A stretch of 64,000 bases of DNA from Patescibacteria group bacterium. GTDB taxonomy: Bacteria; Patescibacteriota; Patescibacteriia; UM-FILTER-42-10. The translations under genes and the position numbers were made by a program. Each line of letters starts with the position of its first letter. The first letter of the stretch is position 1. The notes beneath the pieces are model-generated. The model worked only from the letters and a program-made list of their open reading frames with translations, had not been told where the DNA came from and searched no databases. Below, piece after piece: positions 7,390 to 64,000 of this stretch. Where the stretch lies: contig JBAYKW010000001.1 in the NCBI GenBank assembly GCA_041664365.1, positions 144,862 through 208,861 of the forward strand, read 5' to 3'.

Positions 7390-7499
7390 TATTTATTGCT
7401 CAATCAGTTAAAGTAACGGACTGATCTGTTTTTGGTCAGTTTGCTCATAAAATTAGGTCGAAGTTAGTAACCAAAGTCTCAATTCCGGGAGGTTTCCGC

Positions 7500-8753
7500 A
7501 TGAGAACCCTTTTGTGTTTGTGTGCCATCATTCTGATGGTGCTGCCTGGTCTTTCGGCAACAGCTGCCGAGCTCCAGTACAAGGCCGTTGCCGGACTCGA
7601 TGCAAGCCCCCGGCAAGTGGGCGGTGAACAGGTTGGAGACATCACGGCGTTCGGCTTGAAGCTGTTCGCCACGGATCCGCGCACGCACAGCATGCTTTTT
7701 GGCTTCCAGTACAAGGAATACGACAACAACGTGCCGGAGAGCGCGGGACTCGCTCTGACCAAGCATGAATTTGCCGCAGGAGTAAGCCTGCAGTTCAGCC
7801 GGCCTCTTTCGCTGAAGGTGGCCTACACGCAGGCTGAATACATGAACGACGATCCCTATTCCGCGTTCGGACTGTACCCCTGCTACCGTGGCGGTGATCG
7901 GGGACTGGATGCCGGTCTGGAGCGTGATCTGGCCGGGACCACATTCACGTTCCTGCAGGCGAAACTGAACCGAGGACACGGTACGTGGTACGGCAACGGG
8001 TCGTACGAGCGGTTTCTGACGACTGGTCACGGTTCTTCTGCTGAAGCGGAGAGCTTCGAGCGAATCGGCGGAGGGTATCTGTATTCGGTGCCGGACACGC
8101 GCTTCCGTCTTTTGGCCGGCGCCAACTACAATTTCACTGAGGCGAAACCCACCTGGATTTTTGGCGCTTCACACCACACAAACTCCGGATCGTCCGGCGT
8201 GAATCCGGCCCTTTCGGTATTCTACCGTCTGAAGCCGAATTCGCGGTATGCGCTGGGGATTCTGGCACTTTGGGCGGATTTCGGTCAGCATGCAACGCTT
8301 GGGATTCACGAGGCCGCGTTGCGTGGCGGTTTGAAACGGACGCAGATCATCGCCGGACGGAACATGGGGGATCCGGGAATCGGATCGGCATACGACGCCA
8401 GTGATTTCGGTCTGATCACTTTCGCCGCATCACTGATGTCAGTGGACGCCGGGGATGCGACTTTGATCGAGAACGATCTGACCGGTTACGCGACCTATCC
8501 TGGTTCAATTCTGGGAGTCGCACGGCCGTACATCGGTGCTACGTGGGTCGAGTCGTCTGACCTGATCTATGACCCCTCTCTGCACAGTCTCACCGATCCC
8601 GAGCAGTCCAGGACGGAGTTCAAGCTGGGAGCGAAGATTCCGGTCGGCACGGTTAACCCTGATGACCGGAATTATGAGACTGGCTACCTGCGGGTTGAGC
8701 TGGTCGTAAACAACATCGGCGGTGGAAGCATCAAATTCCAGCACTGGTTCTAG
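7500..8753 (+). CDS. putative outer-membrane beta-barrel protein (signal peptide, C-terminal ...KFQHWF), lying in a high-GC island
   Basis: Signal peptide ends SATA-AE. There are alternating amphipathic strands and a terminal aromatic Phe typical of OMP beta-barrels. GC is ~60% with a strong GGGAGG RBS, both out of character for the backbone. Confidence 0.5.
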   Translation: MRTLLCLCAIILMVLPGLSATAAELQYKAVAGLDASPRQVGGEQVGDITAFGLKLFATDPRTHSMLFGFQYKEYDNNVPESAGLALTKHEFAAGVSLQFSRPLSLKVAYTQAEYMNDDPYSAFGLYPCYRGGDRGLDAGLERDLAGTTFTFLQAKLNRGHGTWYGNGSYERFLTTGHGSSAEAESFERIGGGYLYSVPDTRFRLLAGANYNFTEAKPTWIFGASHHTNSGSSGVNPALSVFYRLKPNSRYALGILALWADFGQHATLGIHEAALRGGLKRTQIIAGRNMGDPGIGSAYDASDFGLITFAASLMSVDAGDATLIENDLTGYATYPGSILGVARPYIGATWVESSDLIYDPSLHSLTDPEQSRTEFKLGAKIPVGTVNPDDRNYETGYLRVELVVNNIGGGSIKFQHWF

Positions 8754-8776
8754 CACATCGTGCCCATAGGGGTACA

Positions 8777-8813
8777 CGCGCTGTTTTGAGAGGGGAATAC
8801 AGCGCTTTTTTTA
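8777..8813 (+). terminator. rho-independent terminator after the OMP gene
   Basis: Stem GCGCTGT / ACAGCGC followed by TTTTTTT, read directly. Confidence 0.6.
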
Positions 8814-8961
8814 TTCTTGTATATTACGATTGATGAAAATATTTATATATTGAAGTTATTTTAATAAACCAAAAAGCAGAAGCAACCAGTTCATGGTGCT
8901 AAGTTCATACTTAGTTGTAATGGAGTTAAGAATCTAGGGAAATAGTATCCTAGATCCTATA

Positions 8962-15836: not shown

Positions 15837-16035
15837 ATTGCAAAAACTGTAAGAGGAAATTTTTTGTTTACATAACTTAATAGTACATAAGCGGTTCTGC
15901 TTATTACACTTTGTCACATTACTCATATTTGCCGAGTTGTAGCCATCGGTATATCACGTAACATGTAGTAGTTGCTTATGCGCAAACGTTAAACAAGTAA
16001 ATAAAAAAAGCGCTGATTGAATATCAACGCGCGCT

Positions 16036-16335
16036 TTAGTCTTCCCCGGATTCTCTCCAACTCTTTGTGCAGTTCTGGCAGCGGTATTCTACCTGTGTTT
16101 TTCCGAAGGAGAATATTCCGGAGAATGATGAGAAGGTGCGTTGACGAGTGGGAAAGACCAGGTAGTGGCGTGTCTTACAGACGGGACAGCAACGTTTCCC
16201 TTCTTCATCGCGAGGGATGAGATGATCTTCTAAAGGTGCAAGGTATATGACCGCCGCGATGGTCAGAAACAGGGGGTGGATGAAAAGTCCGAAAAGAAGC
16301 ATTATACAGAAAAGAACACGCTGGTTGCCTGACAT
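16036..16335 (-). CDS. small membrane protein with C-terminal zinc-ribbon (CPVC...CQNC), in a high-GC island
   Basis: GGAGGAGGTG RBS upstream of the second Met. Two TM helices, then CxxC...CxxC. A terminator hairpin AGCGC...GCGCT plus a T-run follows on the minus strand at about 16000-16035. Confidence 0.3.
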   Translation of the reverse strand: MSGNQRVLFCIMLLFGLFIHPLFLTIAAVIYLAPLEDHLIPRDEEGKRCCPVCKTRHYLVFPTRQRTFSSFSGIFSFGKTQVEYRCQNCTKSWRESGED

Positions 16336-16482
16336 TTTCACCTCCTCCATGAATTAATAAGTCAGCCTACAGGACAGTTAACAATGCTAATCTATTTGCG
16401 TTTTGCTGTCAATATTTGTAAATAAAAAATGGGCGAGTTTTGTGGACTCGCCCGGTGTGCATCTCAACGATGATCTTCTTCT

Positions 16483-16938
16483 CTACGCCTTCGCGTAGGC
16501 TGCGACAATTTCGGATGACAGGGCATCCGGTCCGATCCGCTGAATCAGCGCGGCAGCCTGCTTTCTGGTCGGCTTCGCCGTGCCGGTTCGTGGGTCGAGC
16601 TTCGGAATGCTCAGGAGGTTGACGGGGGGCGAGTAGCCTCCCGCCATGGCATCAGTCACATCCTGATCGAAGCAGCGCTGCAGGTAGCTGTGCAGGGGTC
16701 CTGCGGGGGTCATGGGGTTGTTGGAGTTCATGCAGCTCCCGCAGACGCACAACAGGACGGTGCGCGCGCATCCGACGGGGGATTCCTTGTCCTTGGGGGA
16801 CACTGACTGGACTACGAGCACGTGGCTCGAAGACCATTGGGTTTTGTCGCACATGCGAGATCCTCTCATCATTAGAGTCGTGGGCATTGACTGCTCTGAC
16901 GGAGAAGATCGCATGTCAACCGAACCCGCGATGTGCAT
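16483..16938 (-). CDS. hypothetical cysteine-rich protein (high-GC island); reading frame uncertain
   Basis: Longest ORF in the ~60% GC segment and contains a CVCGSC cluster. Several overlapping alternative frames are open, as expected at high GC, so the call is weak. Confidence 0.25.
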   Translation of the reverse strand: MHIAGSVDMRSSPSEQSMPTTLMMRGSRMCDKTQWSSSHVLVVQSVSPKDKESPVGCARTVLLCVCGSCMNSNNPMTPAGPLHSYLQRCFDQDVTDAMAGGYSPPVNLLSIPKLDPRTGTAKPTRKQAAALIQRIGPDALSSEIVAAYAKA

Positions 16939-17224
16939 GACACCACGAGTACATAGTGGGTACCTCCCTGTAGGATCGGGGTTGTGGGGTGGCCAACAGA
17001 TACGGACAGAGTGTCCGCACTACAAAATGGTAGAAGAAAGTGGGGTAGGAGGACACGCATTTAGCAAATCCCAGAGGGCAACATCTGCCCACGGGCGAGC
17101 GAACTCGCCAGTCAATGTTACCCAATGGGTAGCATTTCTGCCTGCTTTTTGGTGTTGCGGTCCTCCCACCCACATCGTTGTTTCAAAGGTCAATATACAA
17201 AGAAAGTAATACAAATATGCCCTA

Positions 17225-17269
17225 TTGTCAAGACTAGTGTAATATTGTACAAAGCTGCCAGCTTGACAA
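17225..17269. promoter_or_regulatory. candidate ArsR operator: inverted repeat TTGTCAAG-n25-CTTGACAA containing palindrome AAGCTGCCAGCTT
   Basis: Read directly, upstream of the arsR-family gene. ArsR/SmtB regulators typically bind imperfect 12-2-12 inverted repeats overlapping their own promoter. Confidence 0.4.
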
Positions 17270-17307
17270 ATTAATAAAACTGATATAACATTAAAACAGT
17301 TGAGCAA

Positions 17308-17658
17308 ATGATAAAACGTAATATGCTGACACAGAAACAGGTATTAAAAAATAAAAACTGGTTACTTAAAAACGGTAAACATATAAAAATCCAAAGTGAT
17401 CTTTGTAATGTTTTATCTGATCCGACCAGGATAAAAATATTGCTGTTATTAAAACATTACAAAGAGATTTGCGTTTCAGATATCGCATCCATTTTGGATG
17501 TAAGTGTCAGTGCGGTATCACATCAGCTGAGTATGATGGAACGCTCCAATATTGTGACTAAATACAAAATGGGTAAACATGTCTGCTACTTGCTTGAAAT
17601 TAATGATAAAAAGATGGTTGGAATGCTGGATAATCATTTAGATAAACATATTCACTAA
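17308..17658 (+). CDS. ArsR/SmtB-family transcriptional regulator
   Basis: LSDPTRIKILLLL...ICVSDIASILDVSVSAVSHQLSMM is a winged-HTH ArsR signature. Confidence 0.75.
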   Translation: MIKRNMLTQKQVLKNKNWLLKNGKHIKIQSDLCNVLSDPTRIKILLLLKHYKEICVSDIASILDVSVSAVSHQLSMMERSNIVTKYKMGKHVCYLLEINDKKMVGMLDNHLDKHIH

Positions 17659-61904: not shown

Positions 61905-61975
61905 ATTTTGATCAAATAAAAAAACCGCATTCAGCAAAGATTGCTGGTGCGGTGTGGGGAATGAACGGCGTTCAG
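61905..61975. terminator. bidirectional terminator-like hairpin between convergent genes
   Basis: AAAAAACCGC...GCGGTTTTTTT with internal complementarity. Marks the boundary into the high-GC segment. Confidence 0.45.
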
Positions 61976-63969
61976 CGCGGTTTTTTTGCATGCAGCAGAT
62001 CTTTGAGAAATGCTGAAAACAGCGCTAGGTCAGCATGAGCGAAACGGATTGTTCTGGCGCTGAAAAGTAGCCAGATCCTTCCGTGGGCAACTCTGTGTTT
62101 CAAAATCCGCCAATGCTCCTCAATGTCCACCCGTGTGTTTCTGGCTGAAGTACGCATGTTGGCCAGTCGTAAACCACTTGGTACCTTATGACCATGTGAT
62201 TTATACAAACTCCTTAGCTCAGAGAGTTTGAGGTTCGGCCAATGGCCCGCATGCTTCTTTTCAACCAGCTGGATGACCTCTTCCTCGATCTTGCCCTGTT
62301 CACGGGTTTGTAGCCACACTTCCAGCATGATCCGCAGGAACCGGGCTGTCTCCCGGGCTAGGCGGATGTTTTCACGCGTGTTGTAGACCCAAAACTGGAA
62401 CAGATTGAGCTGAGGAAAACTGCTCCTCCTCGAATGCCGGGATCGCACCCGGGCAAAACCCGCCACCATCGGATGGCGTTTCGGCACCATCAGCGCGTAT
62501 TTGTACCAGACGAGGTTCCAGAAGATCTTCCAGTAATCCTGCCTTTCCGTATGTTTGAGGATACGTACCATGTTCTCGGTGGAATAGAACGTCTCCCACG
62601 CAGACCGGTAGGCGGATAGCCACTCCTCCCGGGTCATCAGCGGGTGATCTATGACCGGATGTGAGAATGAGTCGAAGGAGTTCAGGTCCGAATCCATCGG
62701 TACACCGGCTAGGAACAGCCGTTTGTGATCCATTGCTCCCGGCAGTGGTGTGGCAATGAAAAACGACACGGTATCCGGTTCCAGCTCCATCAGCTGAAGA
62801 ACGTCCTTATGCACTGATTCCGGCGTGTCGTGCGGCAGGCCGATCATGAAGGCAAGGTGGGTCGCGATGCCGTGCTTTTTGAAGGCAGACATCATTTCCC
62901 GGAACTGCTCCACGTGGTTTTGGCCTTTGCCGACCGCAGACAAGTTCAAAGGGTTCAGACTTTCGATCCCGATGAACGCCATCGAACAGCCGGCCAGCGC
63001 CGCTTTTTCTAGGAATTGCGGAATCTTGTGGCACTGGGTATCCACCTGCATCAGGAAGTGAATATGGATTCTTTCTTCTTTCTGCATGGCGATCAGCGTG
63101 TCGAAGCGCTCTTCCCAAAAAGGATCTCGGGCTGTGTTGTCAGAAGTCAGGAAGTAGACCCGAATGCCCAATCTCCAGTTGGCTCGGATCGCGTCCGCGA
63201 AACCCTGAACGCCTCGCGCCCTAATCACCCTGCCTTGGACTACCCAGATCGTGCAGTACTGGCAGTTGAATGGGCATCCACGGCACGCGTCGATGGTGCT
63301 GGTGTTCGGATAGACGAATCGGTGCTTAATCTCCGCAATGGACATTGGAACCGGTTCCTCCAGAAGGCTCGGCGGATCGTCGACGTAGTTGTATGTCGGC
63401 TTGAGACCGCCGGACAGAAAGTCCTGCAGCAATCCCAGCATCCTGCCTTCTGCTTCACCGGCAAACAGCGCCACGCCATTGTCGGTCAGAGCTTTCAGAC
63501 CCAGTTCCTTGTAGGCTCTCATGTTATCCGCGCTCCCGTCCTGCGGAAACTGCTTCAGGATTCCGGACACATGGTATCCGCCCATGATCACGGAAATTCC
63601 CCGTTTCCTGAACTCGAGCGCAAGATCGGAAGCTCGTACGAACTGGCTGGTTTGAACACCGGCCAGCATTACCAGAGTACGTCCGGGAAGGGTACGGCAG
63701 AGAAAAGCTATCCTGCTCGGCAGAACAGCCTCCACCGCCTCGTCGTAGATTCTGACGACGATGTGCACCTTGATTCCCAGTCGCAGATTTTGCCTCACAT
63801 CCTGAATCAGGCTGTAAAGCGTCGCCAGCGTATTGCTGGGATACACGCCCCGGAAGTCCTGCCAGACAAAGCCGTTCTCATCGTCGTATTTTGACGGTTT
63901 GATCAGCACCAAGTTGAGGACTTTCTTTCCCGAAAGCACAGCCCAGAAAGACGTTGTTTGTCTCGCCAA
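61972..63969 (-). CDS. B12-binding-domain radical SAM protein (cobalamin-dependent rSAM with DUF4070-like C-terminus), in a high-GC segment
   Basis: N-terminal Rossmann-like B12-binding region, then CRGCPFNCQYC (the CxxxCxxC radical SAM cluster motif) and a ~250-aa C-terminal domain. GC is ~58%. Confidence 0.75.
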   Translation of the reverse strand: MARQTTSFWAVLSGKKVLNLVLIKPSKYDDENGFVWQDFRGVYPSNTLATLYSLIQDVRQNLRLGIKVHIVVRIYDEAVEAVLPSRIAFLCRTLPGRTLVMLAGVQTSQFVRASDLALEFRKRGISVIMGGYHVSGILKQFPQDGSADNMRAYKELGLKALTDNGVALFAGEAEGRMLGLLQDFLSGGLKPTYNYVDDPPSLLEEPVPMSIAEIKHRFVYPNTSTIDACRGCPFNCQYCTIWVVQGRVIRARGVQGFADAIRANWRLGIRVYFLTSDNTARDPFWEERFDTLIAMQKEERIHIHFLMQVDTQCHKIPQFLEKAALAGCSMAFIGIESLNPLNLSAVGKGQNHVEQFREMMSAFKKHGIATHLAFMIGLPHDTPESVHKDVLQLMELEPDTVSFFIATPLPGAMDHKRLFLAGVPMDSDLNSFDSFSHPVIDHPLMTREEWLSAYRSAWETFYSTENMVRILKHTERQDYWKIFWNLVWYKYALMVPKRHPMVAGFARVRSRHSRRSSFPQLNLFQFWVYNTRENIRLARETARFLRIMLEVWLQTREQGKIEEEVIQLVEKKHAGHWPNLKLSELRSLYKSHGHKVPSGLRLANMRTSARNTRVDIEEHWRILKHRVAHGRIWLLFSARTIRFAHADLALFSAFLKDLLHAKKPR

Positions 63970-64000
63970 TTCACGCAGAACGGCGATGACAGCATGCGAC

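Follow-up and report, generated by a model that had tools for sequence, protein, structure and literature searches.

We analyzed a guanine-cytosine (GC)-rich island within a 64,000-nucleotide (nt) stretch of DNA from a Patescibacteria group bacterium (the window); the stretch lies on a metagenome contig of 392 kb (ENA ERZ27249449 k141_744634). The minus strand of this island, from about 17195 to 16424, is best explained as a single mRNA that runs from its own promoter to an intrinsic terminator and encodes an orphan cysteine (Cys)-rich protein of 123 amino acids (aa). Its leader of about 340 nt (approximately 17195 to 16855) carries a conserved multi-stem RNA domain (domain 1), a 12-codon upstream open reading frame (uORF), and a hairpin in which the Shine-Dalgarno (SD) sequence of the main gene is paired. 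On balance, we regard it as somewhat probable that the leader is a translational switch that depends on its leader peptide and operates within a tightly folded mRNA for the Cys-rich protein.

Relatives of the locus were found by searching with the protein of the neighboring zinc-ribbon gene and then with the Cys-rich protein. The searches yielded eight lineages in all, namely the window, L005 (the same as L006 and L007; GCA_041666845.1), L008 (GCA_041666485.1), L003/L002, L004, L009, L015 (GCA_018827645.1), and L016; the relatives derive from metagenome-assembled genomes (MAGs) labeled Patescibacteria group bacterium. Full-length leaders were available from four lineages and partial leaders from two. 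A Pseudomonadota candidate (L014) was left aside; it had been retrieved through a common RCFDQDVTDA pattern and aligned weakly, with 32% identity and an E value of 5e-5 that is relative to the candidate stretches only. The Cys-rich protein family is tiny: only four 50%-identity cluster representatives were retrieved when its profile was run against 1.84 billion representative proteins. The order of a divergent ArsR-family gene, the leader and Cys-rich gene, the zinc-ribbon gene, and a holin-family gene was shared by the window, L005, and L008, and the divergent pair of the ArsR-family gene and the leader with its Cys-rich gene was also kept in the distant L015.

The transcript is delimited by the promoter and the intrinsic terminator listed in Table 1. 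The TTGACA box of the promoter and its spacing were kept in L005, L008, and L015, and transcription would start at about 17190-17196. The terminator stem was kept in the six aligned lineages and showed three covarying pairs. In L009, another gene lies downstream, yet the terminator of the Cys-rich gene was retained; L016 also retained it, with a stem at the same place (GGGCAAGC...GCUUGCCC), and its downstream gene was not identified. The zinc-ribbon gene, which the sequence-only reading of this DNA had placed behind the same leader, has its own promoter and terminator. The island therefore consists of two transcription units on the minus strand, each with its own signals.

Table 1. Positions of the features of the two transcription units and of the divergent regulator gene, in window coordinates
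Feature	Position	Strand	Description
Island promoter	17203..17231	-	sigma-70-type; -35 TTGACA 17231-17226, 17-nt spacer, -10 TACTTT 17208-17203
5' flank ACAACGAUGU	17172..17181	-	complementary to CAUCGUUG (16465-16472) of the 3' untranslated region (3'-UTR)
Leader domain 1	17040..17173	-	about 135 nt, multi-stem; P1, P2, P2a, P3
P1	17157-17173 with 17040-17058	-	closing helix of 15-17 bp, includes GGGTGGGAGGAC/GTCCTCCTACCC
P2	within 17040-17173	-	AGCA/UGCU
P2a hairpin	17131-17142	-	GGCA-GAAA-UGCU, GNRA loop
P3 long arm	17070-17129	-	pairs GGGUAACAUU with GAUGUUGCCC; UUCG hairpin (P3c) at the tip, 17094-17109
Invariant internal-loop segment CGUGGGCA	17086..17093	-	perfect complement of UGCCCACG (16879-16886)
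U-rich tract UUUCUUCUAC	17030..17039	-	directly 3' of P1; U-rich in all five lineages holding it
Variable hairpin	17002..17018	-	GCGGAC-ACUCU-GUCCGU; position and stem kept, sequence changes
C-rich linker GCCACCCCAC (anti-SD1)	16984..16993	-	pairs with the SD of the uORF
SD1 AGGGAGGU	16962..16969	-	7 nt 5' of the uORF AUG; conserved in five lineages
uORF MYSWCHAHRGFG	16916..16954	-	12 codons and a UGA stop, followed by C
Anti-SD2 GCGAUCUUCUC	16902..16912	-	4 nt past the uORF stop; pairs with SD2
Apical segment UGCCCACG	16879..16886	-	apical region of the SD2-sequestering hairpin; invariant in six lineages
SD2 region GAGAGGAUCUCGC	16855..16867	-	directly 5' of the main start codon; sequestered along with the AUG
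Cys-rich protein coding sequence (CDS)	16483..16854	-	123 aa, orphan; conserved C2 and CxCxxC
3'-UTR element AGAAGAUCAUCGUUG	16465..16479	-	complements the U-rich tract 3' of P1 as well as the 5' flank
Intrinsic terminator of the leader-CDS transcript	16424..16453	-	GGGCGAG...CUCGCCC, then a U-tract; from the terminator scan
Zinc-ribbon/transmembrane unit	16003..16412	-	promoter TTGACA-17-TAGCAT 16412-16384; CDS 16335-16036, 99 aa; terminator 16030-16003
ArsR/SmtB-family regulator gene	17308..17658	+	Pfam HTH_5, 2e-14; divergent from the leader and Cys-rich gene

The two small open reading frames (ORFs) that the sequence-only reading had described in the island both exist. The zinc-ribbon ORF (16036-16335) has conserved homologues, and the Cys-rich ORF had been drawn too long, as 151 aa at 16483-16938. 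Homologues of the latter align from MC(D/K/R)..., which corresponds to the ATG at 16854; this start codon is preceded by GAGAGGA and gives 123 aa. Because the CDS starts at 16854, the end of the leader moves from 16940 to 16855, and the leader, which had been taken as noncoding, was found to contain a 12-codon uORF (16954-16916) that had been missed. NCBI annotates the Cys-rich gene from an internal methionine, with only 82 aa (P0008).

The comparison of lineages revealed that the Cys-rich frame is the only one open in all of them, that third-position differences are about twice as frequent as those at positions 1 and 2, and that the ratio of nonsynonymous to synonymous divergence (dN/dS) is approximately 0.27-0.33. 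The homologues are 51-80% identical, and the product has 121-123 aa, is not hydrophobic, and contains 5-6 Cys (about 5%). Neither the Cys-rich nor the zinc-ribbon protein had a sequence match in Pfam, NCBIfam, PADLOC, PHROG, or PDB, no RNA-binding domain was detectable in the Cys-rich protein, and its AlphaFold2 model was unusable, with a predicted local distance difference test (pLDDT) score of 53. In L004 (1-110), the Cys-rich gene looks frameshifted between the segments ...ETVSP and GC(T/A)RTV..., which could reflect a pseudogene or an assembly indel.

Several other interpretations of the transcript were rejected. The strong folding of the unit (z score of -7) had suggested a noncoding RNA of 770 nt with a spurious ORF, and this was discarded on the basis of the amino-acid conservation, the single open frame, and the third-position bias. 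A stand-alone large noncoding RNA similar to OLE, GOLLD, or ROOL was discarded because the 3' two-thirds is a genuine CDS, with a dN/dS of approximately 0.3. An overlapping alternative-frame ORF behind the low synonymous divergence was discarded because the other frames carry stops in several lineages. The ENA gene caller annotates a 163-aa protein (a 163/165-aa ORF) at 16712-17209 on the plus strand, antisense to the leader and the start of the CDS. Searches for relatives of this ORF retrieved only the ORF itself, and in L008 the antisense ORFs differ in extent; it is most likely a spurious call and a GC artefact.

Known RNA families did not account for the leader. Rfam 15 at gathering thresholds gave no match in the window, and a search at E<=10 over 15900-17400 returned only unrelated families, with 15-20 bits against thresholds of 48-64.5. 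Searches of the homologues L006, L003, and L008 gave no Rfam match, and ARAGORN found no tRNA or tmRNA. On the basis of these empty searches, tmRNA, tRNA, RNase P, and the large noncoding RNAs already described were rejected as candidates.

The 3' part of the leader contains the elements on which the proposed switch would depend. The uORF peptide, MYSW[SC][YH][AT][HR][RH]GFG, has the same start, stop, and length in the window, L005, L008, L003, and L015, and two of the changes in L015 are synonymous (UAC to UAU and UUC to UUU). SD1 reads AGGGAGG or AAGGAGG, and the spacer between it and the AUG varies in sequence and has a length of 6-7 nt. The uORF is probably translated. The helix of anti-SD1 and SD1 was 96.7% paired across five lineages, with one compensatory change from C-G to U-A in L015 (CCACCUC with AAGGAGG). 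The C-rich linker that forms anti-SD1 also resembles the 3' strand of P1, and the resulting alternative pairing lacked covariation support. In the per-lineage folds, the stem of the variable hairpin is GCGGAC/GUCCGU in the window and L008, GCGGGUGGA/UCUGCCCGC in L005, GCGAUGG/CCGUCGC in L003, and UACGCA/UGCGUA in L015.

The SD of the main gene (SD2) lies in a helix of this module. The strand GAUCUUCUC of anti-SD2 pairs with GAGAGGAUC of SD2, and the 9-bp core was 100% paired in five lineages, with two compensatory changes, both in L015 (G-C to C-G and U-A to A-U), and four one-sided changes. Flanking pairs reach the AUG in the closer lineages, and the module folds to between -24 and -32 kcal/mol in four lineages. 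Possible alternative partners of the apical segment UGCCCACG are uORF codons 3-4 (UCGUGG) and the domain-1 loop CGUGGGCA; neither of these pairings showed covariation.

Domain 1, folded separately in the four full leaders, had the same architecture in each, with z scores from -4.8 to -7.7. The long-range helix GGGTGGGAGGAC/GTCCTCCTACCC, noticed in the sequence-only reading, is real and forms part of the longer P1, for which two compensatory pairs were found, both in L015: GAGGAC/GUCCUC is replaced by GAGAAC/GUUCUC (G-C to A-U), and a U-A pair by G.U. The P2a hairpin is AGCA-GUAA-UGCU in L008 and GGCA-GUAA-UGCC in L015, and its loop is always GNRA (GAAA or GUAA). Of the two local hairpins proposed earlier, GGCGAG-TTCG-CTCGCC (17094-17109) was borne out by compensatory changes from G-C to A-U in L008 and L015 and by a 33-nt insertion in L005 that merely lengthens its stem. 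The second, GGGCA-gatgt-TGCCC, is possible but competes with P3 and is absent from the consensus fold, in which GAUGUUGCCC pairs with GGGUAACAUU; changes from A-U to G.U in L008 and L015 fit this P3 pairing.

Folding in excess of expectation was determined as z scores against dinucleotide shuffles (n=200 for the leader) and in sliding windows of 200 nt. The minus strand of 16940-17180 in the leader folded to -97.8 kcal/mol, compared with -75.1+-5.2 kcal/mol for the shuffles (z -4.4), and 0 of the 200 shuffles reached this value; the z score of the whole first unit (16420-17190, 771 nt) was -7.1. The excess in the sliding windows was confined to 16400-17200 and was strongest at 17000-17199 on the minus strand (z -6.2), and the zinc-ribbon gene had a z score of about 0 to +1. 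The average for the other GC-rich islands of the window and 40 control windows was about -0.5. Because the other islands gave near-control values, the excess folding is not due to GC content alone. Column shuffles of the alignments yielded z scores of -7.5 for domain 1, -5.3 for the leader, and -11 for the whole transcript, and the consensus fold of the CDS also exceeded its column shuffles (z -3.2 to -4.0).

The leader is conserved well beyond its surroundings, and this constitutes evidence independent of the structure statistics. Identity between lineages was 86-91% for domain 1 and 87-93% for the block of the uORF and SD2, compared with 50-66% for the variable linker, and the synonymous divergence (dS) of flanking genes in the same lineages was 1.1-2.4, near saturation. 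In the five-lineage leader alignment, 93.2% of the cells were paired, whereas 42-48% were paired when partners were slid; 11 pairs had changed on both sides, compared with 3.5+-1.6 in shuffles (0 of 500 reached 11) and 0-3 with slid partners. In the whole-transcript alignment, 85.4% of the cells were paired against 36-43% for slid partners, and 24 both-side changes were counted against 12.0+-2.6 in shuffles. The sequence-only reading had taken the leader for a riboswitch or other cis-regulatory RNA rather than a spacer, and had named three results that would together speak for a spacer: an empty Rfam search, a lack of covariation among homologues, and helices no more stable than shuffled sequence. 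The first is what we found; against the other two stand 11 compensatory pairs and a stability that no shuffle reached. A cis-regulatory role is accordingly supported by conservation, shared folds, and covariation, and the more specific label of riboswitch is unproven.

We further examined whether the CDS is constrained as RNA. Its GC content at third codon positions (GC3) was 0.62-0.88 in all lineages, compared with 0.24-0.54 in neighboring genes and 0.53-0.69 in the zinc-ribbon gene. The raw dS of the Cys-rich gene (window, L005, L008, and L003) was 0.38-0.61, compared with 0.8-2.4 for the ArsR, holin, and zinc-ribbon genes; the synonymous sites of the zinc-ribbon gene (0.8-2.0) were far more diverged than those of the Cys-rich gene. 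Codon bias was corrected for by redrawing synonymous codons from each gene's own usage, and the raw contrast overstates the constraint because this bias accounts for part of it. Within the CDS, 61% of the changed cells of L003, held out from the fold, stayed paired, compared with 34% in slid controls.

Several observations weigh against the proposed switch, or at least against the strength of the structural case for it. The folds under test came from the very sequences on which they were tested, and covariation has little statistical power because only four full and two partial leaders are available. Most pairs of domain 1 are invariant and hence uninformative for or against structure. When a lineage was held out in a MAFFT alignment, the changed cells stayed paired only slightly more often than in slid controls (L015, 53% versus 48%; L003, 52% versus 39%); MAFFT visibly misaligns the P3c tip hairpin of L015, which contributes to the small excess. 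After correction for codon usage, the ratio of the observed to the saturated proportion of synonymous differences (pS) was 0.48-0.69 for the Cys-rich gene and 0.57-0.99 for its neighbors, a modest constraint, and the helices within the CDS failed in the distant L009 and L004 (33% paired against 33-35% in controls). The nucleotides of the uORF also sit in predicted helices, and their conservation may thus be structural rather than coding. The helix between the 5' and 3' ends of the mRNA was 90% paired with zero covariation, and it rests on complementarity and conservation only. Stalling of the ribosome and the action of an effector are hypothetical. The covariation is moderate, as the lineages are few; the additional synonymous constraint is real but modest, and the retained high GC content is more striking; and the structure of the CDS is supported within the closer clade only.

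With these reservations, we propose the following mechanism for the leader-peptide-dependent switch. The C-rich segment would partly mask SD1 of the uORF, and the 9-bp anti-SD2 helix, which starts 4 nt past the uORF stop, would lock the SD of the main gene. A ribosome translating the uORF would sit or pause on the UGA and thereby cover and unwind the anti-SD2 strand. This unwinding would expose SD2 and the AUG, so that production of the Cys-rich protein would depend on translation of, or stalling on, the uORF. The complementary mRNA ends and the high-GC structured CDS suggest a tightly closed default state that may be long-lived or inert. The present analysis established the transcript signals, the coding status, the conservation, the excess folding, and the compensatory changes in key helices; from these we infer that the uORF is translated, that the ribosome unmasks SD2, and that a signal is sensed.

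Similar logic is known from ermC with its leader ermCL, from secM-secA, and from mifM-yidC2, which are controlled by ribosome-mediated translational attenuation through a leader peptide. As in these systems, a short uORF with its own SD precedes a main SD held in a hairpin whose 5' strand adjoins the end of the uORF. The features of leader-peptide attenuation present here are a uORF with conserved SD, start, stop, and length, and an SD2 sequestered within reach of the ribosome. The peptide pattern MYSW.....GFG, however, matches none of these leaders, which also lack a counterpart of the additional structured domain of about 135 nt found upstream here. A 12-aa peptide would remain wholly within the exit tunnel and hence cannot sense secretion or membrane insertion. 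The uORF peptide and the upstream domain would thus be new, and the logic of SD sequestration is already known from the three systems. In a more far-reaching version, domain 1 would be a new RNA domain, specific to Patescibacteria, that senses a ligand or protein; SD unmasking would proceed in two steps through the conserved 12-aa arrest-type peptide, and the whole transcript, including the CDS, would have been selected as a folded dual-function RNA. We consider this version unlikely.

The alternatives mainly concern domain 1, which may bind a ligand or protein, act as a 5' stabilizer, or, with its U-tail, form an attenuator or separate small RNA. It is conceivable, but unlikely, that domain 1 forms the aptamer in a novel riboswitch for a small molecule or ion, perhaps related to redox or metals in view of the adjacent ArsR-family gene, and controls either translation of the uORF and the main gene or termination at the U-tract. 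The leader shares with riboswitches and other Rfam leaders a conserved GC-rich multi-stem domain in the 5'-UTR, GNRA and UNCG loops, invariant junction nucleotides, and a downstream SD-sequestering helix. The invariant unpaired segments, the GNRA loop kept as GAAA or GUAA, and the strong conservation of the junction are in line with an aptamer, and as no known family matched, even at E<=10 in Rfam 15, it would represent a new class. The invariant segment CGUGGGCA is moreover complementary to the equally invariant UGCCCACG, and could form with it an 8-nt Watson-Crick duplex of -16.5 kcal/mol; each segment is unchanged in all lineages holding it. This complementarity is a lead only, a possible physical link between domain 1 and the expression module, as the three complementary 8-mer pairs observed are within the chance expectation of 0.8+-1.2 per shuffled leader. 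P1, with 15-17 GC-rich bp, is unusually long and far more stable than the P1 stems that typically switch, and no alternative structure exclusive with P1 could be demonstrated. No aptamer class was recognizable, and the single orphan gene in one narrow Patescibacteria clade provides no ligand from its context. The clearest regulatory logic of the leader remains the uORF with SD sequestration rather than ligand sensing.

The very stable, scaffold-like form of domain 1 would fit recognition by a protein better than switching by a ligand. The protein could be the encoded, putatively zinc-binding Cys-rich protein or a general RNA-binding protein, and the outcome would be autoregulation or a ribonucleoprotein particle, similar to the leaders of ribosomal-protein genes. 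The conserved C...CxCxxC could be a zinc knuckle, and the RNA domain is never found apart from the orphan protein, whereas another gene takes the place of the downstream zinc-ribbon gene in L009. Such co-occurrence is nevertheless expected of any 5'-UTR and its gene, and the protein had no detectable RNA-binding domain or family match and only an uninformative AlphaFold model (pLDDT 53). We therefore consider protein binding distinctly unlikely.

The U-rich tract that follows P1 (5-6 U in 8 nt in five lineages) permits another interpretation. The tract could mark an attenuator or the 3' end of a small RNA, or it could pair with the AGAAGA of the 3'-UTR; the helix with AGAAGA was 87.5% paired and showed no covariation. 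According to the former, domain 1 and its U-rich tail would form a separate small RNA of about 185 nt or an attenuator, with P1 as the terminator stem and the mRNA arising from read-through only. A strong GC-rich stem followed by a U-tract, with a promoter directly upstream, agrees with this interpretation. The stem nonetheless encloses about 100 nt, in contrast to the short loop of typical terminators, and the terminator scan did not call P1. In addition, the U-tract and the 5' flank complement the conserved 3'-UTR element, an arrangement sensible only in a full-length transcript. Overall, this interpretation appears improbable.

The 3'-UTR element contains AGAAGA.CAUCGUUG and is kept in the window, L005, L008, and L003 within an otherwise variable 3'-UTR; the 5' flank is also conserved. 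Whole-transcript folds pair the element with the 5' flank ACAACGAUGU, and this pairing could close the ends of the mRNA. The arrangement recalls the hok/sok system, in which the hok mRNA is held by pairing of its ends (fbi-tac) and carries the mok leader frame. Complementary 5' and 3' ends, including the tract after P1, a stable and highly folded mRNA, a leader reading frame, and a masked main SD are common to both, and a stored mRNA of this kind would be locked by its ends, activated by processing, and coupled to its uORF as hok is to mok, as part of a toxin-like or addictive module. The product here, however, is a soluble-looking Cys-rich protein of 123 aa and not a small hydrophobic toxin of less than 60 aa, and here the uORF and the main ORF are nonoverlapping. 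A consensus scan found no plus-strand promoter-like site for an antisense RNA within the leader, the sole plus-strand site being the ArsR promoter, and the locus occupies a conserved, syntenic chromosomal position rather than a plasmid or mobile element. A hok-like module is thus very improbable. Least probable of all, and already disfavored, is the view that the island is foreign GC-rich DNA with incidental structure: its very high GC3 suggests a high-GC donor, and the genes in other GC islands of the window (for a radical SAM protein, a C-terminal portion of PurH, and an orphan of 417 aa) are ordinary or orphan ones, but those islands have no excess folding, the leader carries compensatory changes and is far better conserved than expected under neutrality, and high GC was kept in all eight lineages while the zinc-ribbon gene and the flanks drifted.

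A 200-nt scan of the window for large islands above 50% GC identified four, at 1-562, 7413-8829, 16017-17204, and 61922-64000, with no sequence similarity among them. The third is the island that had been described from the sequence, and its mean of 53% and peak of 64% GC, against 38.8% across the window, agree with that description. Across lineages, the locus of the leader and Cys-rich gene keeps 55-65% GC. The same order of the ArsR, leader and Cys-rich, zinc-ribbon, and holin genes was found in independent ENA, JGI, NCBI-MAG, and Logan assemblies, and contigs of independent assemblies span both island junctions, for which the sequence-only reading had recommended such a check. An assembly chimera is excluded by this synteny. 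A phage, plasmid, or viral origin was rejected because searches gave no match and PADLOC and PHROG were also empty.

The remaining islands and one further element were recorded as side observations. The island at 7413-8829 on the plus strand (56% GC) contains a 417-aa ORF (7500-8753) that matched nothing in Pfam, NCBIfam, PADLOC, or PHROG, and the island has a folding z score near 0. That at 61922-64000 on the minus strand (54% GC) contains a gene for a 665-aa radical SAM protein (PF04055, 1.3e-15) and shows no excess folding. GC-rich protein genes thus recur in this low-GC genome and were possibly acquired from outside. At 480-583 on the plus strand, an element of about 105 nt has a perfect 14-bp stem, AUCCCGUUAGAAGC / GCUUCUAACGGGAU, around three small hairpins; it lies just past a terminator-like hairpin, between a C-terminal fragment of PurH and a NUDIX gene. 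The region 410-630 folded with a z score of -3.6, and Rfam at E<=1 gave no match for the element. The zinc-ribbon gene also exists in L008 (6516-6813), where the gene calls of the MAG miss it; one of its four zinc-ribbon Cys is replaced (EYRYQDC versus EYRCQNC).

The ArsR promoter, TTGACA-17-TAACAT at 17263-17291 on the plus strand, stands back to back with the island promoter, with about 30 nt between the -35 boxes. The spacer carries a different palindrome in each lineage, for example TTGGCTAA-AA-TTAGCCAA in L015, and no conserved operator was found in it among the lineages compared. In the window, the ArsR gene is followed by genes for thioredoxin, a DsbD-like fusion, FMN reductase, and cupredoxin; in L015 (520-937), it is followed by genes for a 48-aa SEC-C-motif protein, glutaredoxin, and thioredoxin. 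The redox genes linked to ArsR therefore vary, whereas the divergent leader and Cys-rich gene are constant. This neighborhood suggests a thiol-redox or metal context. In the smtB-smtA pair, an ArsR-family regulator is likewise divergent from a gene for a Cys-rich protein, and the present locus resembles it in having an ArsR/SmtB-family gene divergent from that of a small Cys-containing protein, along with thiol-redox neighbors. It differs in that the protein has 5-6 Cys in 123 aa without similarity to metallothionein, that no operator is conserved, and that smtA has nothing equivalent to the structured leader and the uORF. An SmtA-like metallothionein was consequently rejected, given the Cys content of about 5% and the lack of a match in Pfam, NCBIfam, or PDB; what the two share is the divergent ArsR arrangement alone.

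To our knowledge, and without a targeted literature search, few cis-regulatory RNAs have been described in Patescibacteria (the candidate phyla radiation), whose genomes are tiny. The general reach of the finding is limited because the family is very small. The locus nevertheless shows clearly how local selection maintains base composition in the face of AT pressure across the genome. If the proposed switch is correct, it would be a clade-specific leader that joins a folded domain, a leader peptide, and SD masking before an orphan Cys-rich gene paired with an ArsR-family regulator. The element would thus provide a testable handle on post-transcriptional control, possibly of redox or metal responses, in uncultured bacteria.

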